In this document: positions 2,164 through 44,213 of the stretch, in pieces | Layout: each line of letters starts with the position of its first letter | How positions within the stretch are numbered: position 1 is the stretch's first letter | NCBI GenBank assembly: GCA_017616855.1 | Contig: JAFZXI010000064.1 | Span: 1-52,194, forward strand | Source of the DNA: Clostridia bacterium | GTDB taxonomy: Bacteria; Bacillota; Clostridia; Oscillospirales; RGIG8002 | Direction: 5' to 3' | Length of the DNA: 52,194 bases | Position numbers and translations under genes: made by a program | Notes under the pieces: model-generated | Databases searched by the model: none | The model's input: only the letters and a program-made list of their open reading frames with translations | Told to the model about the DNA's origin: nothing

Positions 2164-2663
2164 AATACGCGTATTTTGCGGGCGGTTGCTTTTGGTGTAT
2201 AGCGGCGGTGTTCGACGCACTCAAGGACGTGACCGGCGTGGTCAGCGGTTTCAGCGGCGGCGGCGAGCCGAATCCGGAATATGAAGACGTCAAGGCGCAG
2301 CGGACGACGCATCGAGAGACAGTCAAAGTAATCTATGACGATGCCGTTGTAGATTATGAAACGCTGGTTTCCGTGCTTCTCGCGAACGTTGACCCTCACG
2401 ATCCGGACGGCCAGTTCATAGACCGCGGCAGGTCGTATTCGCTCGCGGTATACTACGAGACCCCGCAGGAAAAAGAAATCGCCGAGCGGCTTGTCGGCTC
2501 CCTCGAGCGCGAATCGGGGAAGCCCGTTTTCGTCGCGATCGAGCCGTTTTCGGTGTTTTACGCCGCGGACGAATACCACCAGGACTACCATAAAAAGCAC
2601 CCGTCGGAGTTCCGAAAAGAGCTTATTTCTTCGGGAAGGGCATCGGAAGATAAAACCGAATAA
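2160..2663 (+). CDS. msrA: Peptide-methionine (S)-S-oxide reductase
   Basis: FAGGCFWC, HRETVKV, GQFIDRG, ADEYHQDY; ATGA overlap with msrC stop. Confidence 0.92.
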   Translation: MKYAYFAGGCFWCIAAVFDALKDVTGVVSGFSGGGEPNPEYEDVKAQRTTHRETVKVIYDDAVVDYETLVSVLLANVDPHDPDGQFIDRGRSYSLAVYYETPQEKEIAERLVGSLERESGKPVFVAIEPFSVFYAADEYHQDYHKKHPSEFRKELISSGRASEDKTE

Positions 2664-2670
2664 CCGTTCG

Positions 2671-2700
2671 ACAGACCGTTTTTGCGCGGTCTGTTTTGTT
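2671..2700 (+). terminator. Intrinsic terminator after msrA
   Basis: ACAGACCG/CGGTCTGT stem followed by TTTGTT. Confidence 0.7.
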
Positions 2701-2723
2701 ATATATTAATATAAAATAATATC

Positions 2724-2752
2724 TTGTAAAATATAGAACTCTATGCTATAAT
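2724..2752 (+). promoter_or_regulatory. SigA promoter with extended -10, probably giving a leaderless tagA mRNA
   Basis: TTGTAA-N17-TATAAT with TGn; ATG 6 nt after the -10; no Shine-Dalgarno. Confidence 0.65.
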
Positions 2753-2758
2753 GGCAAT

Positions 2759-3502
2759 ATGGAAAAAGTATGTATTATGGGAATAGAATACGCGAACGCA
2801 GGACTCGGCGAGATTGCCGACGAATGCGTTTCCTATACCGCGTCGAGAGAAGCGAAGATGGTCGTTACGCCCAACGGTGAGATCGCGGAGCGCGCCTATA
2901 AAGACAGTGATTTCATGGCTGTCCTTGCTCAGGCCGACCTCGCGGTGCCTGACGGCGTAAGCGTCAAGCTCGCGGCTAAGCGCTGCGGCACTCCGATAAA
3001 GGAACGCGTGCCTGGAGTCGAACTCGCGCAGGAGCTTATCAAACGGCTTGACGCGAGCGGCGGCAGTTTGTTCCTTTTCGGCGGCGCGGAAGGCGTCGCG
3101 GAGGACGCCGCGAAGAATATTTCGGCTCAGCACCAGGGCGTCGTTATCGCGGGCAAACGCAACGGCTTTTTCGATGACGACTCCGGCATAATTGCGGAGA
3201 TAAACGCCGCTTCGCCGGACGTTCTCTTCGTTTGCCTCGGTTCGCCGAAGCAAGAAGAATGGATGGCGGCAAACCGCGCCGGACTTTCCTGCGGAGTGAT
3301 GCTCGGACTCGGAGGCACGCTCGACGTGCTAGCGGGCAGAGTGAAACGCGCTCCGGCGTTTTGGCGCAAGATCGGCTGCGAATGGCTCTATCGCACAATC
3401 AAGCAGCCGTCGCGCATCAAGCGCATAGTGAAAATACCCGTTTTCGTGCTTTCCGCTAAGCGGAGGACGAAAAAGCTCAATAAGCAAGAGGTGTCAAAAT
3501 GA
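2759..3502 (+). CDS. tagA: WecB/TagA/CpsF family glycosyltransferase (N-acetylmannosaminyltransferase-like)
   Basis: VVTPN, PDG, ERVPGVEL, LGSPKQE, GLGGTLD, EWLYR motifs. Confidence 0.9.
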   Translation: MEKVCIMGIEYANAGLGEIADECVSYTASREAKMVVTPNGEIAERAYKDSDFMAVLAQADLAVPDGVSVKLAAKRCGTPIKERVPGVELAQELIKRLDASGGSLFLFGGAEGVAEDAAKNISAQHQGVVIAGKRNGFFDDDSGIIAEINAASPDVLFVCLGSPKQEEWMAANRAGLSCGVMLGLGGTLDVLAGRVKRAPAFWRKIGCEWLYRTIKQPSRIKRIVKIPVFVLSAKRRTKKLNKQEVSK

Positions 3503-4170
3503 AAGGCAAACTGATAGTATTTGAGGGCATGGACGGCAGCGGTAAGGCGACGCAGAACAAGCGCCTTTACGATACGCTCGTTTCCGCCGGTTATAAGGTC
3601 AGACGCATCAGCTTTCCGGATTACGAAGCGCCTTCGAGCGCGCTGCTGCGCATGTATCTTAACGGCGCGTTCGGGGACAAGCCCGACAGCGTCAACGGCT
3701 ACGTGGCTTCCGCGTTCTTCGCGGTCGACCGCATAGCGTCGTATCTATCAAAGTGGCGCACCGCGCTCGACGACGGCGAGATAGTCCTTCTCGACAGATA
3801 CACGACCTCGAATATGGTGCATCAGACCTCGAAGCTTCCGAGGGAGCAATGGGACGAATACCTCGATTGGCTTTACGATTTTGAGTTCAACCGGCTCGGG
3901 CTTCCCGCACCGGATCTTACGCTTTACCTGCGCGTTTCCGCGGATATTTCCGAAAAGATGCTCGCTAAAAGATACGGAAACGACGAATCAAAAAAGGACA
4001 TTCACGAGAGAGACGAAGATTATCTCCGCAGATGCGAGGAGAGCGGAATGTACTCCGCCAAAAAGTTCGGCTGGAAGGTCATCGAGTGCGCCGAAAACGG
4101 CGAGCTCCGCCCGATAGACGAAATCGCGGAGGACGTTCTCAGAGAGGTTTCTGTGCTTCTTAATGCTTGA
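3499..4170 (+). CDS. tmk: Thymidylate kinase
   Basis: FEGMDGSGKAT P-loop, SFPDY, DRY, PDL, DIHE. Confidence 0.85.
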   Translation: MKGKLIVFEGMDGSGKATQNKRLYDTLVSAGYKVRRISFPDYEAPSSALLRMYLNGAFGDKPDSVNGYVASAFFAVDRIASYLSKWRTALDDGEIVLLDRYTTSNMVHQTSKLPREQWDEYLDWLYDFEFNRLGLPAPDLTLYLRVSADISEKMLAKRYGNDESKKDIHERDEDYLRRCEESGMYSAKKFGWKVIECAENGELRPIDEIAEDVLREVSVLLNA

Positions 4171-34467: not shown

Positions 34468-36270
34468 ATGATGATTAAACGTGTGGTCGCTATTGTATTA
34501 TGCATTGCATTGACTGCGATCATAATGCCTACTTTGGCGTTCGCCGATGAAGGGAAGCAGATTGAAAGCAAGCACAAAACGGGAGACATTGTTCCTGGAC
34601 AGATAATATTACAACTAAAGGAGCCATATTACACATTTGATGGACCTCACTATGATCTTAGAGAATTGCTTCCGGAAATAGAAATTGAGTCTTATACCGA
34701 TATATTCCTTTCTGTTATCACGGCGCGTGAAAAACCTAGGGAAGAAATGAAACCCGATATGGTTGCGAGTGTCGGCACGGAATTTGGAATAAATCTCACC
34801 GAAAAAACGGTAGAGGCTTCTTTGCGTGCTATTAACCTACTTAAAGATAATCCATATGTCAAACTCGTAGAGCCGAATCTTTATGTTGAGCCGTTGTATA
34901 CAATTCCGAATGACCCGCTTTACGCTCCGTCGATTGGCACGCCGCAATGGGGTCTAGAGAAAATCGGTGCACCGGAAGCATGGGATTATATAACAGGTAG
35001 TGATATGACGGACGGCTCTGAATTGGATGATTATGTAAGAGTTGCCGTTATAGATTCTGGTATTTATGATCAACATCCAGATCTTGTGAATAATCTCGAT
35101 ATGTCACTTGCGTATAATGCGTATTATAATACGCTCGGTTATACTTCAGACACTTACGGACACGGAACTCATGTTGCTGGAATAATTGGTGCGGAAGGTA
35201 ATAATCTGGAGTGTATAGCAGGGGTGTGTTGGCGCATACAAATGGTGCCAATTAAAATAATGGATCCGTACAATGATACTGACGCTTTACTTATTAAAAA
35301 AGCTATAGAGTATGCAAAAGATAATGATATATATATTGCCAATCTAAGTTATACTCTTGTTGATTGCGCGGCTTTAAAACAAGCAATTGAGGATTATTCC
35401 GATGCAGGAGGATTATTGGTTATTGCTGCCGGGAATAGCAATACAAATCTCAATTATAGTAATTTGTATCGTTATGTATCAGGGATTTCCGGCGTAATTA
35501 TTGTTGGAGGACTCGATTATAATATGACAGATGATTCTCCTTATAGCGGTTATTGTTTTGGAGATGAGGTTGTTGACCTTTATGCACCAAGTCGATCAAT
35601 CGTCAGCACAGTACCTTATTCTATAAATCCATCAGGATACTTGGAAGCTAATGGCACGTCAATGGCTGCGCCGTTTGTAACGGGTACTGCCGCACTTATA
35701 AAATCAGCAAACACTTCGTACGGCGCCTCAACAATAAAGAAGAGGATACTTGATAACGTTACGACATCGGCTAATCTTACAAACTTTTGCATAACCGGCG
35801 GAAGGCTAAATATTCCGGATGCTTTATACGATATGGGGTATCGGGTCATAATTTCCAATACTATGACTCACGGAACGGTGCTCCCCTCCGCGATATTTAC
35901 AAAGCCGAATACGATCGTATATCTGACGGCGTATCCGGATGCGGGCTATATGCTGAAGCCGGGGACGATGAAGCATAATTCAAACAATACGGTTCAGATC
36001 AGTAAGTGGCGCTGCTTCTGCGCTATGCCGTATTCAAACGACACGATAACTGCGCAGTTCTATATGGTCGGCGACGTTGACCTTGACGGATATATCACGA
36101 TAGCTGATTCGCTTGCTGCGCTGCGCCATTATACGGGGCAGATCACGTTGACGGGCGACGCCTTACTTGCTGCCGACGTTGACGGCGATAACGACGTCGA
36201 TAACGACGATGCGCAGTATATCGCGGATTACTGCGCGGGAACGATCACGGTGTTCCCAATAGAGTTGTAG
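34468..36270 (+). CDS. Secreted S8 subtilisin-like serine protease with propeptide and C-terminal dockerin
   Basis: Signal peptide (AFA), VAVIDSG, HGTHVAG, AAGN, GTSMAAP; GDVDLDGYITIAD...DVDGDNDVDNDD. Confidence 0.93.
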   Translation: MMIKRVVAIVLCIALTAIIMPTLAFADEGKQIESKHKTGDIVPGQIILQLKEPYYTFDGPHYDLRELLPEIEIESYTDIFLSVITAREKPREEMKPDMVASVGTEFGINLTEKTVEASLRAINLLKDNPYVKLVEPNLYVEPLYTIPNDPLYAPSIGTPQWGLEKIGAPEAWDYITGSDMTDGSELDDYVRVAVIDSGIYDQHPDLVNNLDMSLAYNAYYNTLGYTSDTYGHGTHVAGIIGAEGNNLECIAGVCWRIQMVPIKIMDPYNDTDALLIKKAIEYAKDNDIYIANLSYTLVDCAALKQAIEDYSDAGGLLVIAAGNSNTNLNYSNLYRYVSGISGVIIVGGLDYNMTDDSPYSGYCFGDEVVDLYAPSRSIVSTVPYSINPSGYLEANGTSMAAPFVTGTAALIKSANTSYGASTIKKRILDNVTTSANLTNFCITGGRLNIPDALYDMGYRVIISNTMTHGTVLPSAIFTKPNTIVYLTAYPDAGYMLKPGTMKHNSNNTVQISKWRCFCAMPYSNDTITAQFYMVGDVDLDGYITIADSLAALRHYTGQITLTGDALLAADVDGDNDVDNDDAQYIADYCAGTITVFPIEL

Positions 36271-36332: not shown

Positions 36333-37244
36333 ATGAAAAAGCTTTATAAACGCTTGCTTGCGGTCGTGCTTTGCTTGGCGCTGACGGCGGCGATAGCTCC
36401 GGCAACGGTATTCGCATCGTACGATAGAGAGCAGGGCAGGGTTAGGCCGGGCGTCTTTCTTTTGAAACTGAAAGAACAATACCTTGGGAATCTTAGAGAT
36501 CTGTTCCCTGAGATTGGTATTGAAGCCTATACTGATGAAAGAAAAACTAAATACTTCAATGAGCATAGTATAATTAGTTCGATACCTCCGCAAGATGATT
36601 TTGGAATGTATTTCATAGTGCATACTTCTGAAAACACCAGCGATGCAGTTATCTACGCGATGGCAATTCTTGAAAATGATCCGCTTGTTGAGTATGTTGC
36701 GCCGATTGATTATATCGATGGTGAGTTTTTCTTCATTAGTTTCTATGAGCCCTACAATGGCGACATTGCCGAGCTGCTTGCGGAGTTTTTGCCTGACATC
36801 GAGATTGAGAGCGTTAGAGAGGAAACCGAAACATTACGTTCAATATTGACTCAGCACGGCAAAGAATTCAGCGATTCTCTCAAAGCGCGTATCAATACGG
36901 AATTTAGGATTACACTTGTCGAAAAGACCGGCGATGCCGTCTTGAACGCGGTGAATAGAATTGAGCAAAGCAATTTTGATTTAATCAAAAGTGTCTATCC
37001 ATTGATTTGGCAAGATAATGGACCCAGACCTTTGGTTGAGTGGGGCAAAGAAGATAATGTAGTTATCGACCCGCCCGTCGATGATAAGCTTACAGTTGCC
37101 GAAGCGCTGGATGTTCTCCGTGTTGCCGCAGGGCTTGCGGTAGCCACTCCCGAAGAGGAGGTCGAATTCGACAAAGACGGCGACGGGGAAGTCACCGTGA
37201 ACGACGCGCTGATCGTTCTCCGCATCGCCGCAGGGCTTGCGTAA
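36333..37244 (+). CDS. Secreted protein: two S8-propeptide-like repeats plus a dockerin-like tail
   Basis: Signal peptide (VFA); repeats align to the neighbour's propeptide (LKEQY..LRDLFPEIGIEAYTD vs LKEPY..LRELLPEIEIESYTD); DKDGDGEVTVNDALIVLRIAA. Confidence 0.8.
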   Translation: MKKLYKRLLAVVLCLALTAAIAPATVFASYDREQGRVRPGVFLLKLKEQYLGNLRDLFPEIGIEAYTDERKTKYFNEHSIISSIPPQDDFGMYFIVHTSENTSDAVIYAMAILENDPLVEYVAPIDYIDGEFFFISFYEPYNGDIAELLAEFLPDIEIESVREETETLRSILTQHGKEFSDSLKARINTEFRITLVEKTGDAVLNAVNRIEQSNFDLIKSVYPLIWQDNGPRPLVEWGKEDNVVIDPPVDDKLTVAEALDVLRVAAGLAVATPEEEVEFDKDGDGEVTVNDALIVLRIAAGLA

Positions 37245-37265: not shown

Positions 37266-37305
37266 AAAAAAGCATCCGCTTTCCGATAGGAGGGCGGATG
37301 CTTTT
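37266..37305. terminator. Bidirectional terminator between the protease and B12 operons
   Basis: AAAAAAGCATCCGC...GCGGATGCTTTT. Confidence 0.8.
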
Positions 37306-37319
37306 GATTATATTCGTAT

Positions 37320-37994
37320 TTATATCCCGTATTTGATTTTGAGGCGTTCGATCTTTTTGCCTATCGGTTTGGCGAGCAGCAGCAGGAATATTACGTTCGA
37401 TACAGCGTAGGTTATCGTGAAGGGGAGTGAAGACGCGATCTTCGTCGCATAGACGCCGAAGTCGAAAACGTTCGTATACCACATCGCCGTGTTGATATCC
37501 ATTATCAGCGAGAATATGACTCCGGCGAGCGCTCCGTAAACGCAGGTGATGATGAGGTTCCTGCGCAGCAGCGGCGCGAGCAGCCCCGCGAAAAGCCCGA
37601 CGAGCCCCCATGCGAGCATCTGGTACGGCGTCCACGGGCCCTGCCCGAAGTAAAAGTTCGATATCAGCGCCGTCATCGCGCCGCAGATGAAGCCGGCTTC
37701 GCCTCCGAAGTACATGGAGAGCAGTATTATTATCGCCGTCACGGGCTTGAATGCGGGGATGACCGCAAACACGAGCCGTCCGACTATAGAGAGCACGCAC
37801 ATTATCGCGATAACGATGAGCTGACGCGCGCTGTTCTCCTTTTTCTCAAACGAGAGGAAAAGCGCCGCGAGCGCGAAAACGACGATTATCAGCGAAAGAT
37901 ACGCGTAGCTTTTATCGGCGAAAACCGTGAAGCCGAGCAGCACGATTATCGGAACGGAGATCAGCAGCAGCGCGATGGAAAGCTTCTTTCTCAT
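37320..37994 (-). CDS. ECF transporter S component (CbrT-like, probably cobalamin)
   Basis: GR..F..IP.FKPVTA, SNFYFGQGPWTPYQM; start moved to 37994 (MRKKLS, AAGGA RBS). Confidence 0.85.
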   Translation of the reverse strand: MRKKLSIALLLISVPIIVLLGFTVFADKSYAYLSLIIVVFALAALFLSFEKKENSARQLIVIAIMCVLSIVGRLVFAVIPAFKPVTAIIILLSMYFGGEAGFICGAMTALISNFYFGQGPWTPYQMLAWGLVGLFAGLLAPLLRRNLIITCVYGALAGVIFSLIMDINTAMWYTNVFDFGVYATKIASSLPFTITYAVSNVIFLLLLAKPIGKKIERLKIKYGI

Positions 37995-39619
37995 TGCGGC
38001 TTCCTTCCGTTTTCGGCGCAGAGTTTCACGACGTTTTCGACAGTTACGGCGCGGTCGTAGTATCCGCGGCTCATGCGGCTCGCGGCGGTCGTGTAGAAGT
38101 TGTTTTCGGAGAAGAAGGTCTCCGGGTCCTCGACCGCGGCGACGGAGCCGTTGAAGAAGAGCGCGCAGCGGTCGGCGCATGCGGCGGCGAATTCGACGTC
38201 GTGCGTGACGAGCAATATGGTGACGCCGTTTTCTTTGAGGTCGCGGAGGATTTTGATTATGCGGCGTTTCGCCGCGGCGTCGATGCCCTTCGTCGGCTCG
38301 TCGAGCAGGAGCAGTCGCGGCTTGAGCAGCAGGATCTTCGCGAGCGCGCAGAGCTGCTGTTCGCCTCCGCTGAGGTCGTACGGGTGCTTTTCGAGGTAAG
38401 GCGAAACGTCAAACGGAAGGGAGGAGAAGTCGTCGCTTATCTCGCTCAGATCGTCCTTGACGGTGTCGCGCAGGAAGACCGTCTGCACGTCCTGCGGCAG
38501 CATGGCGACGCCGTTTTTGTATAGCTCTCCGCCCTTGTAGGCGGAGATTTTTTTGCCGAACACTTCGACTTTGCCGGAATACGCTTTCAGCAGTCCGGCG
38601 GCAACGGAGAGTGCCGTAGTTTTGCCGGATGCGTTGTCGCCGAGGATGCAGAAGATTTCGCCTTTGCGGACGGAGAGGTCCATATCGTTCAGAACGTCCG
38701 GAAGCTCTCTGGCGTAGCGGAAGAAAACGCGGGAGAAGCGAAGTATTTCTTCGCCGGATACGCGTTCGACGGGTGGAAGCGACCTTGTCGCGTTGCCGTA
38801 TCCGCTTTCGATGAAGGCGCGGCCTTCTTTTACCGTCAGCGGCGGTTCGCTGTCGTCGCCGAGCGCTTTGCAGATGCGGACCGCGGAGGGCATCGCGGCT
38901 TCCATCGGGTCGTCGTTCGCCATTCTGGAGGCGACGGCGCGAGGCGTGTCGTATGCGGCTATCCTGCCGTCTTTAAGTTGTATCGCCTTGTCGGCGACGA
39001 GGAAAAGGTCCTCGAGGCGATGCTCGGAAATGATTATCGTCAGCGAAAGCTCGCGGTTGAGCTTCGCGAGCGTCGCGATAAATTCGGAGGCGGCGATCGG
39101 GTCGAGCTGGCTCGTCGGCTCGTCGAGCAGCAGCAACTTCGGCTGCGTCACCATGACGGAGGCGAGGTTGAGCAGCTGCTTCTGTCCGCCGGAAAGCTCG
39201 GAAACGTCGCGCAGGAACCAGTTGCCGATGCCGAAGTAGCTCGCCATCTCGCTTATCCTGCGGTTGACTGCGCTTTTTGAAACGCCGGCGCTTTCGAGTC
39301 CGAACGCGAGCTCGTGCCAGACCTTGTCGGTCACAATCTGCGTTTCCGGTTTTTGCATGACGAAGCCGATTTCGCCCGCGGAGGTGCGGGCGTCCAGCTC
39401 GGAAAGCTCGGTCCCGCAGAATGTGACGCTGCCGGACTTTTCGCCCGCGGGCGAAAGCTCGCGCTTCAGCATGCGCAGGAGTGTTGTTTTTCCGCAACCG
39501 GTCTCGCCGAAGAGTACGACGAAGTCGCCGGCGTTTACCTTGAATGAAACGTCGGAAAGCGCGTTACGGTCGCTGTTCGGATATTTGAAGGTCAGATTGC
39601 GGACGTCAAGTATTTCCAT
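37991..39619 (-). CDS. ECF transporter tandem ATPase (A-A' fusion)
   Basis: Two NBDs: GETGCGKT/LSGGQKQ/LDEPT/SEH and GDNASGKT/LSGGEQQ/LDEPT/VTHD; start moved to 39619 (GGAGAGG RBS). Confidence 0.92.
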   Translation of the reverse strand: MEILDVRNLTFKYPNSDRNALSDVSFKVNAGDFVVLFGETGCGKTTLLRMLKRELSPAGEKSGSVTFCGTELSELDARTSAGEIGFVMQKPETQIVTDKVWHELAFGLESAGVSKSAVNRRISEMASYFGIGNWFLRDVSELSGGQKQLLNLASVMVTQPKLLLLDEPTSQLDPIAASEFIATLAKLNRELSLTIIISEHRLEDLFLVADKAIQLKDGRIAAYDTPRAVASRMANDDPMEAAMPSAVRICKALGDDSEPPLTVKEGRAFIESGYGNATRSLPPVERVSGEEILRFSRVFFRYARELPDVLNDMDLSVRKGEIFCILGDNASGKTTALSVAAGLLKAYSGKVEVFGKKISAYKGGELYKNGVAMLPQDVQTVFLRDTVKDDLSEISDDFSSLPFDVSPYLEKHPYDLSGGEQQLCALAKILLLKPRLLLLDEPTKGIDAAAKRRIIKILRDLKENGVTILLVTHDVEFAAACADRCALFFNGSVAAVEDPETFFSENNFYTTAASRMSRGYYDRAVTVENVVKLCAENGRKPQ

Positions 39620-40470
39620 TTTATCCTCTCCTTCAGTTCGAGCAGGGCGGGGAGCAGCGCGAGCGCTCCGTAGAATACGTAGCAAAGAATAATCAGCGGC
39701 GACGCCGTCGGCAGCACGATGTTGGGGTAGAACTCCATCGAAAGTCCGCCGACCGCAGCGAAGGTTATCGCTCCTGCGGCGAGCATGGCGGCGATGACCG
39801 TGAAAACGACGTCGGAAACGTGGTATTTGAAGAGTGAAAACGGCTTGCGGTGTTTCAATCCGTAGCCGCGCGCTTTCATCGAGTCCGCGGTGTCTATCGA
39901 GTTCTCGAGCGACCAGGTCGTGAGAATCGAAAAGACGCGGGCTGAGCCCTTCAGCTTGTCGGTGATATTGTCGGCGGAATAGAGCCCCATCGCTTTCTGG
40001 GCGTTTCTTATTTTCGCGCTTTGCTGCTTGAAAAGCGGGATATAGCGCAGGGCGGTGCAGAGTATGAGCGAAGATTTCGGCAGTACGCTTCCTGTCAGAT
40101 AAAGCAGTTTTTCGCCGGTCATTACGAGCGAAAACGAACGGAACCATATGATGATTCCGACTATCATTATTGCGGAGACGGCGCCGTAGATTATCGCTTC
40201 GAGCGTTACGGGCTTGTTGTTGATGAAGAAAAGCTCGGTTTCGCCGTGGTGCGATATGAGTGGGTTTATGAGCGTAATGCCGAAGAAAAGGATGATATAA
40301 AGCCATATTCCGCTCTTTTCGCCGCTCTTTTTAACACAGATAAGGCAAAGCACCGAACCGGCAAGAGAAAACGCGAGAATGACGGGGTCGAGCACGAACA
40401 TCGGGAGCAGGATGACGGTTATAAAATACAGCATGAGCGCGGAAGGATGGAGGCGTTTTATGTCAGTCAT
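39592..40470 (-). CDS. ECF transporter T component
   Basis: TM helices, LRYIP, AQKAMG, TADSMKARGY. Confidence 0.9.
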   Translation of the reverse strand: MTDIKRLHPSALMLYFITVILLPMFVLDPVILAFSLAGSVLCLICVKKSGEKSGIWLYIILFFGITLINPLISHHGETELFFINNKPVTLEAIIYGAVSAIMIVGIIIWFRSFSLVMTGEKLLYLTGSVLPKSSLILCTALRYIPLFKQQSAKIRNAQKAMGLYSADNITDKLKGSARVFSILTTWSLENSIDTADSMKARGYGLKHRKPFSLFKYHVSDVVFTVIAAMLAAGAITFAAVGGLSMEFYPNIVLPTASPLIILCYVFYGALALLPALLELKERIKWKYLTSAI

Positions 40471-42253
40471 CGGTTTCCGCGTCCTTTCCGAGATCGAGGG
40501 TATAGACCCATTCGATAATGTCGCCGTCCTTTATGTCGTAGCTTCCGCAGCCGACGTCGGGCGTGTATTTATTGACTCTGTATATCCAGCCGGAAAGCGC
40601 GCCGTACTGCATTTCCGTGTAGCCGCCTATCGAACTGACGTAGACGGAAATCAGTCCGCCGGAGCCGGTGTAGCTGATTTTAATCTGGTTCGCTCGGGTA
40701 ACGGCGAGAAGCGCGTCGAATACGGTGTCGCCGTCTTTTATCACGTAATGCGTCGGCCTGAGGATGTATCCGTCCTCGGGGTAATCCTCGGCGACGCCTT
40801 CGAGGACGCGGCAGCTGATGCTTATCGTTACGGCGCTGTCGCCGTCGCTTGCGCTGTCGAGGTTGACGTTGTAATAATCCTTGACGGAGGTGAAGTTGAA
40901 GAATAGCGTTCCGCAAATCAGCATTATCGCGCCGATTGCGATCGGTATGATGTTTTTCAGCGTTGCCTGTTGGCGCACGCGCAAATAGACGCACGCGAAC
41001 GCGAACATCAGCACGATACCGCCGCAGACGTAATACTTATAGGAAATGCCTTTGGAGGCGGCTTCGTTTTCGAGAGCGGATGATGAATCGTCGGAAGAAT
41101 AACTTTCAGCCGACGAGGAGGCGACGCTAGTGTCGGATGAAGAATCAGCATAAGAACTCTCCGATGAATCCGAAGAATCAGACGACGTTTCCTCTGTTGA
41201 TAAGCTGCTGTTTTCGGGAGGTAGGGAAGAGCTGTCTTCTTCTGTGTTTTCGGGAGGCGTAACGACAGGCGGCTCGACTTGAGTGCCGCCGGACGTCCTG
41301 AATTTGTAGAAGGAGGTTTTTCCGGCGGAGAAGCGCTCCGCTGCGGTTAACGCACATGCGGCCTGATAGGTGGCGATGGCGTTTTTGACTCCGCCTTTAA
41401 CGTGGCAGTACGTGCCGTCAGAGGTTTGGTACTGACCGAGCGCGTCGTAAAGCGTGTGCCCGTTCTTAATGAAGCGGCCGTCGGATACCGGGTCGATACC
41501 GAGCGACGTCAGCGCGATAATGACCTGTGCGGTGCTTTCGCATGTAGGCATCGGCGGTCTGCCCATTCCTTTGTAATCGCCGTCCTCCGTTTGCCTTGAG
41601 GAAAGAAACGCGAGCGCTTTGTCTATCGCGGCGGCAACGTCAGCTTCGTTATTGTACGGAGCGAGCGCCTGAAGCGTCATGGCGGTGATGTCGATATCGG
41701 AGGAAGAAAACCCTTCGAGCGCCCAACCCTGCATATTGCCGTTTGAATCGGAAAGCTGATGTGCAAGGATATAGTCAATCAAAGAGCGGCGCGTGTTTGT
41801 TTTGCTTTCGTATCCGGCGCAGTCGAGCAGGATAAGCCCGAATATAACGTCGTTTATGTTTTCGCTGACTTTTTCTTCAAGCACCGAATAGACGAAGTCG
41901 TTGTCAACTCCGGATACCGCAAATGCGAGAGCGACGCGCTCTTTTTGAATGTGAGGGAGCGAGCTGCCGTTTGAGGCGACGAAGGTGTTAAGATACGATA
42001 GATACTTATCGCCGTTGATGGAGGGGTCGTGGCGCTTGATGCTGATATAAAGCCAATCGGAATTGCTCGTTCCCGCTTCGGGCGCGACAACATTGTCGAC
42101 GTATCCCTGCAGCGAGCCGCCCTCCGAAGCGAATGCGGAAAACAGCTTTGAAGACTGCGGGGAATACGCGCTTGAGGGTATGGCAATGCCTGCCGCGACA
42201 GCAAGTATCAGCAGCAGGCATGCTATACATTTTTTGAAAAACGTCTTATTCAA
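40463..42253 (-). CDS. Prenyltransferase/squalene-cyclase-repeat domain + Ser-rich linker + 2 TM + DUF4430 domain protein
   Basis: DIDITAMTLQALAPY, ESTAQVIIAL..LGIDP, ATYQA; C-terminal SGWIYRVN...VGCGSY.IKDGD.IEWVYT.DLG.D. Confidence 0.85.
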   Translation of the reverse strand: MNKTFFKKCIACLLLILAVAAGIAIPSSAYSPQSSKLFSAFASEGGSLQGYVDNVVAPEAGTSNSDWLYISIKRHDPSINGDKYLSYLNTFVASNGSSLPHIQKERVALAFAVSGVDNDFVYSVLEEKVSENINDVIFGLILLDCAGYESKTNTRRSLIDYILAHQLSDSNGNMQGWALEGFSSSDIDITAMTLQALAPYNNEADVAAAIDKALAFLSSRQTEDGDYKGMGRPPMPTCESTAQVIIALTSLGIDPVSDGRFIKNGHTLYDALGQYQTSDGTYCHVKGGVKNAIATYQAACALTAAERFSAGKTSFYKFRTSGGTQVEPPVVTPPENTEEDSSSLPPENSSLSTEETSSDSSDSSESSYADSSSDTSVASSSAESYSSDDSSSALENEAASKGISYKYYVCGGIVLMFAFACVYLRVRQQATLKNIIPIAIGAIMLICGTLFFNFTSVKDYYNVNLDSASDGDSAVTISISCRVLEGVAEDYPEDGYILRPTHYVIKDGDTVFDALLAVTRANQIKISYTGSGGLISVYVSSIGGYTEMQYGALSGWIYRVNKYTPDVGCGSYDIKDGDIIEWVYTLDLGKDAETDD

Positions 42254-42281
42254 CTTAACCTCCGGGAGGTTATTTTATGAC

Positions 42282-43907
42282 TTAGATGATATCACCGTGC
42301 ATAACGCCGGACTGACCGGCATCGAGATATTCTGTGCCGGGTTCTTCGCCGCCTGGAGCGGGAATGAGCTTCGCGGCAATGCGCAGGACGTAAAGCGCGT
42401 CGGCGACTGTGATTTCGCCGTCGTTGTCCATATCGCAAATCGCAAGTGCTTCATCAGTTACGGGCACGAGTTTTGCCGCAATGCGGAGGACTGCGAGGGC
42501 GTCGGATACGGTGATTTCGTGGTCATAATCCATATCGCCGATCATGTCGCGTACTTCGGGGAGCTCGACGGTGAAGTCCGGCGCAAAACGCAGCACGAGC
42601 GGCAGGCCGTTTTCTGCTTTTTTGTCGATGGCGACAGTGTGCGCGACTGCGGTAAGCAGATCACGGCTGAGCTTAATCTCGCCATTTTCGTCGGTTACGA
42701 ACTCATGTCCGTCGAAGAGAACGGTCATGCCGACAACGGGATTGGTCGTGACGACCGGGCTCCAGTCTTCGCCATAGGTCGTATCGTTGCTGACGAATCT
42801 GATTATATGCTTGTTAATATCGGTAATGTCGATTTCGGGATACTGCATTCCGACGCCGTAGGGATCGCCGAAGTAGAAGAGGATTTCGTCGCCTTCTTTG
42901 AGGAAGGTTTCGTTTATTCCGACTCCGGGTTCTTCGCCGTTGACGGTGTAAAGCCAGCCGTCCCAACCGCCGAACGTTCCGGCGGCATCGCCGTTAATGC
43001 TCGAGATATAGGGGCTTGCGCCTTCTGCTCCGATAACAGTGAGGGCGTCGCTGTGCTCGTCAGCGTAGATAATGAAATCCTGAACGGAGAGCTGCTCGCC
43101 GGTATAAGCCACCGTGACATCGTCATAGAAGAGATTTGAGTTGATGCCCTCGATGCGGAGTTTAACCGTCATTTCCGAAGTGGCTGCGGGAAGCTCGGGA
43201 ATTTCTATCTCGGCGTCGGGAGCGAAACGGAGCACAAGCGGCAGGCCGCTTTCGGCTTTTTTGTCAATGGAGATCGCGTATTTACCTGCGGGCAGGAGTT
43301 CGTTATCGAAAACTATCTTGCCTTCTTCGTCGGTGGTGAAGGTGGCTTCTCCGATGACGACCGTCATACCGACGACGGGATTGGTCGTGACGACCGGGGT
43401 CCAGTCTTCGCCATAGGTCGTATCGTTGCTGACAAAGCGGATAACTCCGCTGTCAATATCATCTGTGTCTGCAACGGGGTACTGCATTCCGACTCCGTAG
43501 GGATCGCCGAAGTAGAAGACAACGTTGTCGCCTTCGGAAAGGTTGTAGCCGTTTACGCCGACCGGGGGTTCTTCGCCGTTGACGGTATAGAGCCAGCCGG
43601 AGTATGCGCCGAGCGTTCCGGCAACGTCACCGTTTATGTCGGTAATATAAGGGTTGCTGCCGGTCGCGCCGACGACTGTTATCGTGTCGCTGTTGTTGTC
43701 GGCGTATATGATCAGATCCTGAACGGTAAGATTTGCTGAGGAATACTGAACGGTCAGCGTTTCATAATAATAATTCTGCGATACGCCTTCGATGCGAAGG
43801 GTAACGGTCATCTGATGCTGCGCTCCGGCGAATACTGCCATCGGAAGCGCCGCGGTCACGAGCGCGAACGCGAGAATGACCGCCAGAAGCTTTTTGACGT
43901 GTTTCAT
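42282..43907 (-). CDS. Secreted tandem DUF4430-repeat protein with C-terminal type I dockerin
   Basis: Signal peptide; two ~213-aa repeats (LRIEG...GWLYTVNGEEP.VG...GD...FYFGDP); GDMDYDHEITVSDAL...DMDNDGEITVADAL; start 43907 (GGAGG). Confidence 0.85.
   Translation of the reverse strand: MKHVKKLLAVILAFALVTAALPMAVFAGAQHQMTVTLRIEGVSQNYYYETLTVQYSSANLTVQDLIIYADNNSDTITVVGATGSNPYITDINGDVAGTLGAYSGWLYTVNGEEPPVGVNGYNLSEGDNVVFYFGDPYGVGMQYPVADTDDIDSGVIRFVSNDTTYGEDWTPVVTTNPVVGMTVVIGEATFTTDEEGKIVFDNELLPAGKYAISIDKKAESGLPLVLRFAPDAEIEIPELPAATSEMTVKLRIEGINSNLFYDDVTVAYTGEQLSVQDFIIYADEHSDALTVIGAEGASPYISSINGDAAGTFGGWDGWLYTVNGEEPGVGINETFLKEGDEILFYFGDPYGVGMQYPEIDITDINKHIIRFVSNDTTYGEDWSPVVTTNPVVGMTVLFDGHEFVTDENGEIKLSRDLLTAVAHTVAIDKKAENGLPLVLRFAPDFTVELPEVRDMIGDMDYDHEITVSDALAVLRIAAKLVPVTDEALAICDMDNDGEITVADALYVLRIAAKLIPAPGGEEPGTEYLDAGQSGVMHGDII
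42736..43433. repeat. Intragenic direct repeat with a 639-bp period
   Basis: 59-nt blocks 42736-42794 and 43375-43433 differ at one position; protein repeats share the same period. Confidence 0.9.
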
Positions 43908-43920
43908 AATATTACCTCCA

Positions 43921-43956
43921 ATAAAAATGCCTTTCCCGCTAAAGGGCGAGAAAGGC
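43921..43956 (-). terminator. Leader terminator (riboswitch expression platform)
   Basis: Minus strand GCCTTTCTCGC/GCGGGAAAGGC stem, then ATTTTTATT, directly before the RBS. Confidence 0.7.
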
Positions 43957-44044
43957 GCATAACAAAACAAACCGACATAAAGCCGGCGTTCAGTCCGCGC
44001 TTTTCATTACCCAAAAGCGTTCTCCGTGATAGCGGAGCCGAACT

Positions 44045-44139
44045 TTCTTCCGGTAGGCGACCCGACTTGTGACGTTTTGTCAGATACGGTAATGGCTGTT
44101 GCGGCGGATTCTCACCGCGCTTCTCCCGGGCCGGAAGAA
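44045..44139 (-). ncRNA. Cobalamin riboswitch aptamer (compact variant)
   Basis: Closing helix TTCTTCCGG/CCGGAAGAA; GGGAGAAG-CGCGGTGAGAATCCGCCG-CAACAGCCATTACCGTA...AAGTCGG core; leads a DUF4430/ECF operon. Confidence 0.8.
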
Positions 44140-44213
44140 CTATTCACATCGTTTGCATTATATCAATAAAACGGATGGTTTTATATGACGATTATTACTA
44201 TTTATATAAAAAT

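Follow-up and report, generated by a model that had tools for sequence, protein, structure and literature searches.

The 52,194-nucleotide contig JAFZXI010000064.1 (assembly GCA_017616855.1), referred to here in its entirety as the window, belongs to a Clostridia bacterium (GTDB lineage Bacteria; Bacillota; Clostridia; Oscillospirales; RGIG8002) and carries a riboswitch-led operon that encodes an energy-coupling factor (ECF) transporter together with two extracellular transcobalamin-like proteins, P1 and P2. Judged by its sequence and by the sequences of its relatives, the system is a real, widespread and already predicted corrinoid capture and import operon. In this animal-gut bacterium it probably acts as a dedicated ECF corrinoid importer that is repressed by vitamin B12, with P1 and P2 raising capture near the S component of the transporter. 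Two details of the locus are new: the dockerin that would anchor P1, which recurs in the family and was not found in print, and the tandem unit from which P1 is built. A more tentative proposal, which we hold to be possible but somewhat doubtful, is that cohesin-dockerin display has here been recruited for micronutrient capture, forming a two-tier relay that leads from docked P1 to membrane-anchored P2 and from there to the S component. Vitamin B12 is in short supply in gut communities, where organisms compete for it, and the means by which Gram-positive auxotrophs win it are poorly known.

The leader and all five genes lie on the minus strand of the window. P1 (541 residues; 42282..43907) is followed by P2 (596 residues; 40463..42253), the ECF T component (39592..40470), a fused A-A' ATPase (542 residues; 37991..39619) and a CbrT-like S component (224 residues; 37320..37994). 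The last four genes overlap or abut, with overlaps of 8 bases between P2 and T, 28 bases between T and A, and 4 bases between A and S. The leader contains the putative aptamer (44019..44153) and an intrinsic terminator (43919..43956), the presumptive expression platform, which lies just 5' of a GGAGG ribosome-binding site on the same strand between the terminator hairpin and P1. A preliminary description of the window had listed these parts (riboswitch, terminator, P1, P2, T, A-A' and S) and had taken them for a predicted cobalamin ECF system; every one of them is present at the coordinates it gave, on the minus strand. Its picture of a secreted protein with two DUF4430 domains and a dockerin agrees with the two DUF4430 matches, the signal peptide and the above-threshold Dockerin_1 match in the C-terminal part of P1; its membrane alpha-barrel/DUF4430 protein corresponds to the toroid, membrane hairpin and DUF4430 domain of P2; and the transport system it predicted is borne out by a riboswitch-led operon whose CbrT-like S component has 6fnp_A as its only match in the PDB.

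Pfam assigns all three transporter genes above the respective cut-offs: CbiQ (PF02361, E 7e-10) for the T component, two ABC_tran domains for A-A', and ECF-ribofla_trS for the S component (40.4 bits, cut-off 26.7). Against the NCBIfam model ECF_ATPase_1 (TIGR04520), the fused ATPase scores 312.7 bits, just under the cut-off of 315. A T component, two ATPase domains and an S component are thus encoded together, as in a dedicated ECF transporter. The sole PDB sequence match of the S component, over residues 55-223 (E 8.1e-9), is the S chain of ECF-CbrT (6fnp_A), and the protein is accordingly a homologue of CbrT-type S components. From this homology and from the riboswitch, the S component is expected to transport cobalamin. 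At its N-terminus the protein is extended by some 50 residues (1-54), which include hydrophobic segments and lie outside both the Pfam and the 6FNP matches; operon-linked S proteins of other species have 205-250 residues, compared with 182 for the 6FNP chain. A predicted complex of the S component with P2 residues 400-596 scored 0.00 in both runs, which were made without controls and carry no weight either way.

P2 has the architecture of an animal B12 carrier tethered to a membrane. Its sequence begins with a signal peptide, and Pfam finds DUF4430 with weak matches to SQHop_cyclase_C and Prenyltrans. The AlphaFold2 model, made on an alignment of orthologues (mean predicted local distance difference test score, pLDDT, 79.8), contains an alpha/alpha toroid (residues ~31-320) and a DUF4430/SLBB beta domain (474-590), so that both domains of a transcobalamin-type carrier are present in one chain. 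When this model was compared with the PDB by Foldseek, the top 15 matches all belonged to haptocorrin, transcobalamin and intrinsic factor and covered both domains. Haptocorrin 4kki ranked first (E 2.1e-6, target TM 0.54); squalene cyclases and prenyltransferases came after these carriers. The toroid is followed by a disordered, serine-rich linker and then, ahead of the beta domain, by two helices (405-426 and 432-451) that a short basic loop connects. Because the linker and this two-helix hairpin separate them, both domains should face outward in the model, held at the cell surface by the membrane hairpin, and a corrinoid is predicted to be bound between them as in transcobalamin-type carriers. 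The architecture is kept in 18 of 22 aligned homologues; the other four stop after the first membrane helix and are followed by a separate small DUF4430 gene. The animal carriers transcobalamin, intrinsic factor and haptocorrin share toroid and beta fold with P2 and the beta-domain fold with P1, at sequence identities of 10-13% and 11-23%, respectively. In the animal proteins a soluble linker joins the two domains, whereas P2 uses the membrane hairpin; P1 differs from them in having beta domains only, each followed by a beta-sandwich.

P1 consists of a signal peptide, two tandem units, a dockerin and a tail of 27 residues. Pfam reports two DUF4430 matches and Dockerin_1; the DUF4430 (PF14478) scores of 90 bits for P1 and 60.4 for P2 are well above the cut-off of 23.8, and together with the beta-grasp fold they place these domains among the DUF4430/transcobalamin-like SLBB proteins. 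The AlphaFold2 model of P1, likewise made on an alignment of orthologues (mean pLDDT 83.7), adds a feature that the preliminary description lacked, a beta-sandwich of about 90 residues after each DUF4430 domain. The repeating unit is therefore DUF4430/SLBB plus beta-sandwich, and units 1 and 2 are 63% identical over 208 residues without gaps. Foldseek relates the P1 domains to the transcobalamin beta domain 5no0 (TM 0.79, 22% identity) and to a DUF4430 crystal structure, 3u7z (TM 0.75). Sequence and profile searches of PDB chains with P1 reached only dockerins and no transcobalamin, so the link between P1 and transcobalamin rests on Pfam and fold. Corrinoid binding by P1, as by P2, would follow from these resemblances.

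The dockerin module of P1 (42387..42539, minus strand) contains two calcium-loop repeats, DMDYDHEITVSD and DMDNDGEITVAD, and has the two calcium-binding loop-helix repeats of a type I dockerin (PF00404). Its Dockerin_1 score is 23.2 bits by hmmscan (cut-off 22.9) and 28.3 bits in a scan of the genome. The closest PDB match is the dockerin of Ruminococcus bromii Amy16, and dozens of dockerins in four genomes of the genus are 41-75% identical to it. The last 27 residues of P1 (42282-42362, minus strand) form a tail after the dockerin that ends in GVMHGD and is modelled with low confidence; close homologues, P0003 and P0007 among them, have kept it.

The nature of the leader was settled by comparison with related leaders. 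In a permissive search of 801 bases, the Rfam model AdoCbl (RF01482) matches 44019-44153 with 30.6 bits (E 0.0015; gathering score 50), and RF00174 (Cobalamin) has no match in the whole genome at E <= 0.001. Since RF01482 falls below its cut-off, no gathering-level hit is reported and RF00174 does not match, the leader is sub-threshold by Rfam alone. The same conserved core is nevertheless found 5' of orthologous operons. An alignment of 15 orthologous leaders has 36 invariant columns, and the core is invariant. When a 16-pair structure is laid on these leaders, 93.7% of cells are paired, compared with 34-45% when the partners are slid by 1-3 columns; double-sided changes occur in 33 cells, where the slid controls have no more than 10, and none of 500 shuffles reaches this level.

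A covariance model built from the same alignment, R1, scores the window leader at 103.7 bits (44031-44145) and matches nowhere else in the genome. It matches 56 of 83 sources: besides the window, these are two genomes from its genus and, of the 80 loci of other species, 53. Twelve of these 53 loci were training rows, so the independent matches are 41 of 68 loci. The matches sit 5' of the operon on the operon's strand and include all 7 dockerin-type loci. R1 also matches loci that pass the Rfam Cobalamin cut-off (L045, 92.8 bits; L046, 96.2; L008, 40.7; L011, 44.0), a cut-off passed in 4 of 11 loci scanned. In a second, permissive Rfam scan, only three of six sources gave clan matches, all sub-threshold (L043, 38.9 bits; L090, 29.0; L051, 23.5). 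The window leader thus shares a core and covarying stems with members of clan CL00101 that Rfam itself certifies. Because of this covariation and of the R1 matches 5' of related operons, Rfam-certified loci among them, the leader is, as far as comparative analysis can tell, a compact cobalamin-clan aptamer of a class that curated models score poorly. The comparison with Rfam cobalamin models by Infernal, which the preliminary description had proposed as a check, yielded an AdoCbl match at 30.6 bits, below the cut-off of 50; it was the comparison of leaders that decided the identity. The terminator has an 11-pair stem (43956-43929) with 7 G-C pairs followed by the T-run ATTTTTATT, and its hairpin is retained in both the minimum-energy and the centroid fold. 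Corrinoid binding by the leader and the switching of expression are predicted.

The operon belongs to a large family that pairs ECF transporters with transcobalamin-like surface proteins. A search of 185,579 species genomes found 125 stretches that encode a relative, 80 of which were kept as loci. Of 1.84 billion entries searched with the two-domain unit of P1, 962 cluster representatives match at E <= 0.001, and 115 still do so at <= 1e-30. A word-based search recovered close two-unit dockerin forms that are 66-79% identical and many single-unit forms of about 300 residues. By reading of the synteny table, the full order P1-P2-T-A-S occurs in 16 of the 80 loci, and further copies are cut by contig ends. 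In nine loci the order is T-A-S, a small membrane DUF4430 protein and P1, and in five T-A-S is followed by a larger DUF4430 protein. One copy of the alternative order, L042, has after the riboswitch a gene (2568-3974, plus strand) for a 468-residue beta-propeller protein (PQQ_2, DUF5074) rather than a toroid, followed by T, A, S, a 251-residue DUF4430 protein and P1; genes are placed likewise in L026, L030, L033, L038-L041 and L044, and domain content was checked in L042 only. In L009, L010, L012 and L018, P1, P2 and T are present with no detectable ATPase or S gene for several kilobases after T; the missing genes may be encoded elsewhere in those genomes. L055 contains a solitary riboswitch-led, dockerin-bearing P1 gene (7593-8855, plus strand) that is followed by convergent genes and has no ECF genes nearby. 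Cohesin genes beside this P1 copy were considered and rejected, as the sizes of the open reading frames do not fit.

Family members differ in the way they are fixed to the cell. Of 70 members, 69 have DUF4430 by Pfam and 14 have SLH; Dockerin_1 is found in 7, one of them from the window, and Big_2 in 3. Inspection of C-termini shows many sortase-like tails (a P-x-T-G-type motif, a hydrophobic stretch and basic residues), one clade with an amphipathic C-terminal helix, and seven loci with dockerins, one more than Pfam supports. Because the anchor of P1 orthologues may be of sortase type, an SLH domain or of another kind, the dockerin amounts to a swap of anchors that recurs in the P1 family, where several can replace one another; the locus, with its dockerin, shows how freely the surface anchor is exchanged. 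For a quick maximum-likelihood tree, 67 unit sequences were used, namely 65 open reading frames of the loci with at least 150 residues aligned to unit 1 and the two units of the window. On it, the dockerin label requires 5 changes, at least 2 of which are forced by well-supported branches, and the two window units are sisters (SH-aLRT 99), nearest to proteins without the dockerin label. Given these label changes and this placement, dockerins were probably acquired more than once in the P1 family, and the duplication of the unit is specific to the lineage. When the surroundings of the orthologous operons were searched with the three cohesin proteins of the host by BLAST, a method insensitive for cohesins, Big_2 and dockerin matches turned up but no cohesin gene.

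The genome (1.8 Mb, 97% complete) is that of an organism with a probable use for B12. No match to CbiC or CobS, the only two biosynthesis markers checked, was found in it, and it encodes a 210-residue protein with B12-binding_2 and B12-binding domains as well as a B12-binding radical SAM protein. Because these markers have no match while B12-binding proteins are present, the host is most likely unable to make B12 and an auxotroph that imports finished cobamides. All or part of the stretch is contained in 18 public DNA runs, most of them labelled gut metagenome, and no RNA run is listed.

Potential partners for the P1 dockerin are encoded in the same genome, which has 77 Dockerin_1 matches and four cohesin modules in three proteins. 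The first of these proteins (301 residues) has a signal peptide, a cohesin, a C-terminal membrane helix and a lysine (KKKK) tail; the second (409 residues) has a cohesin, two Big_2 domains and a dockerin-like end; and the third (800 residues) has two cohesins, cysteine-rich repeats and a dockerin. With membrane-anchored and adaptor cohesin proteins both present, a route from P1 to the membrane exists on paper, and the P1 dockerin would be expected to dock on one of these host cohesins. A genome devoid of cohesins, which the preliminary description had named as an outcome that would speak against docking, is therefore not what was found: one of the three proteins is membrane-anchored. Its term "cellulosome-style", in contrast, was overstated. 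None of 20 sampled dockerin proteins, out of about 70, matches a cellulase family. The sampled proteins comprise one with CBM_4_9 and Exo_endo_phos, four with Y_phosphatase3, a subtilase, one with LRR_5, one each with Metallophos, DUF4886, NAGLU and GH16, seven with Dockerin_1 as the only clear match, and one without any match. The largest cohesin protein carries just two cohesins, and with 0 of 20 sampled dockerin proteins being cellulases, the dockerin system of this organism is one of general surface display rather than a cellulosome. Elsewhere in the genome, one contig (C100, 10588-27207; L125-L128) encodes four paralogous large proteins with CBM_4_9, Y_phosphatase3 and Big_3, in three of which the best Dockerin_1 match is internal.

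Taken together, the parts suggest the following mode of action. When corrinoid is plentiful, the leader aptamer would bind it and the terminator hairpin would stop transcription; when corrinoid is scarce, the five translationally coupled genes would be expressed. P2 would then act as a full transcobalamin-like binder, its outward-facing domains held at the membrane by the two-helix hairpin, while P1 would be secreted and clipped non-covalently through its dockerin to the membrane-anchored single-cohesin protein or to a cohesin-dockerin adaptor. Both proteins would help to capture corrinoids, when these are scarce, close to the CbrT-like S component, to which the surface proteins would hand over their ligand, and T and A-A' would power import once the corrinoid has reached S. 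The dockerin may take the place, in a way that suits this lineage, of the anchors (sortase-type, SLH or other) found on orthologues, in a genus whose dockerins appear to serve the display of about 70 proteins. By the usual teaching, an ECF transporter does not require an extracellular binding protein; if the two-tier relay is true, this would be an ECF transporter with functional extracellular binding proteins, comparable to the BtuG/BtuH relays and to the staphylococcal Isd heme system. The locus also indicates that the cargo of cohesins and dockerins extends well beyond carbohydrate enzymes, and it offers a compact testable set of one aptamer, two binders, four cohesin modules and one transporter.

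Much of this system has precedents in known ones. In 2007, Burroughs, Balaji, Iyer and Aravind proposed extracellular transcobalamin-like SLBB proteins of Gram-positive bacteria as B12 scavengers (PMC1796856). Their class resembles this locus in its signal peptides, its cell-surface anchors and its fusions to an alpha/alpha toroid; each operon encodes a pair of paralogous extracellular SLBB proteins together with CbiO/CbiQ genes, and the hosts do not synthesise B12. The terms dockerin, cohesin and riboswitch never occur in its main text (additional files aside), and the membrane hairpin inside P2 and the tandem unit of P1 are features of this locus that it does not describe. An ECF operon with extracellular binders is also known from Lactobacillus sakei (lsa1836-1840), which is reported as a heme uptake system and whose authors propose extracellular scavenging followed by hand-over to the S component (bioRxiv 10.1101/864751). 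According to the accessible part of that preprint, the two operons have in common an S component, a fused A-A', a T component and secreted beta-like and alpha-like transcobalamin homologues, all in one operon; the L. sakei system differs in its reported substrate, heme, and in having the alpha and beta parts as separate proteins, and that part of the preprint does not mention a dockerin. In view of these two sources, the extracellular binders in the preliminary description's inference are not new; its cobalamin-riboswitch ECF system, transcobalamin-like folds and dockerin stand.

The transporter has its nearest counterpart in ECF-CbrT of Lactobacillus delbrueckii (6FNP), an ECF-type importer like the present one, which carries cobalamin and cobinamide and for which hemin does not compete; its S component shares the ECF module with the folate S component FolT2 (PMC5997447). 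Here, a dedicated T, A-A' and S are encoded in one operon, A and A' are fused, the S component is longer by about 50 residues at its N-terminus, and the system includes two extracellular binders. In Bacteroides, the surface lipoproteins BtuG, BtuH and BtuJ capture cobamides ahead of the transporter, an arrangement termed a "multiprotein extracellular relay" in one title; in the sources as available, their folds differ from those of P1 and P2 (BtuJ is DUF4465), and they act at an outer membrane with a TonB-dependent transporter and lipid anchors. With cellulosomes and the Ruminococcus bromii amylosome the locus shares a type I dockerin with two calcium-loop repeats and cohesin anchor or adaptor proteins, but its cargo, P1, is a predicted vitamin binder and not a carbohydrate-active enzyme. 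No literature naming both dockerin and transcobalamin was found in the library searched, and none on the subject for dockerin, cobalamin and ECF combined; papers retrieved for DUF4430 were, by title, not on the topic, and the literature searched yielded no B12-binding test of any transcobalamin-like protein of the P1 family.

Several results weigh against a B12-repressed corrinoid importer with a docked capture protein. Formally, the leader stays below the gathering score of clan CL00101 (RF01482, 30.6 against 50 bits), and a gathering-level Rfam search of the whole window reported no cobalamin riboswitch. The Pfam score of the P1 dockerin is marginal (23.2 against 22.9 bits), and cohesin presence does not discriminate genomes with dockerin-type P1 from those with sortase-type P1: the idea that cohesins track dockerin-type P1 was rejected when cohesin matches appeared in 5 of 5 genomes of either type checked. 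P1 has only beta-type domains and no toroid, which leaves the release of its corrinoid to P2 or S unaccounted for. Lastly, the only experimentally studied homologous operon, that of L. sakei, is reported for heme and not for B12. An operon with the same parts being described as a heme uptake system (bioRxiv 10.1101/864751), the window operon might likewise import heme or another tetrapyrrole instead of corrinoids. We consider this very unlikely: a cobalamin-clan riboswitch lies 5' of the operon here, as the sole such element in the genome, and in 53 of 80 related loci, and hemin is described as no competitor of cobalamin uptake by ECF-CbrT (PMC5997447).

The make-up of P1 allows other roles for this protein within a corrinoid system. 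With two beta-type domains and no toroid, it could be a surface reservoir or could sequester corrinoids, either to hoard them or to keep competitors from them, P2 and S alone feeding the transporter; the riboswitch-led dockerin P1 gene of L055, which stands without adjacent ECF genes, is in keeping with such a role, as is BtuJ1 of Bacteroides, for which a surface "reservoir" function for B12 is proposed. In most cases, however, P1 comes first in a transporter operon, which suits a working partner, and the reservoir role appears unlikely. P1 could also be released as a diffusible corrinoid scavenger that later docks again on a cohesin, with the dockerin as its return address. The non-covalent nature of docking, the marginal score of the dockerin and the conservation of the 27-residue tail behind it would all accord with a protein that leaves the surface; yet the P1 dockerin resembles the ordinary dockerins of the genus (41-75% identity), and since characterised cohesin-dockerin pairs bind very tightly, free cycling is not to be expected. 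On balance a diffusible P1 is improbable, and capture by a P1 that stays docked near the transporter is preferred.

The remaining features of the locus lie at its two ends. A sigma-70-like promoter candidate (44139..44166, minus strand; TTGATA, a 16-base spacer and AATAGT) was found by consensus scan with 9 of 12 matches; promoter-like sites in the region are not more numerous than in shuffles, and the candidate is for this reason weak evidence. At the other end, the terminator scan located a 17-pair hairpin (37268..37305), assigned to neither strand, between convergent genes, where it likely closes the operon as a two-way terminator. Near the operon, two secreted proteins with dockerin-type ends are encoded on the opposite, plus strand (34468-36270 and 36333-37244). 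The product of the former is a subtilase (Peptidase_S8) that Dockerin_1 matches weakly; that of the latter has 303 residues, no Pfam match and dockerin-like repeats at its C-terminus, and its N-terminal part repeats a motif that is also present near the N-terminus of the subtilase.

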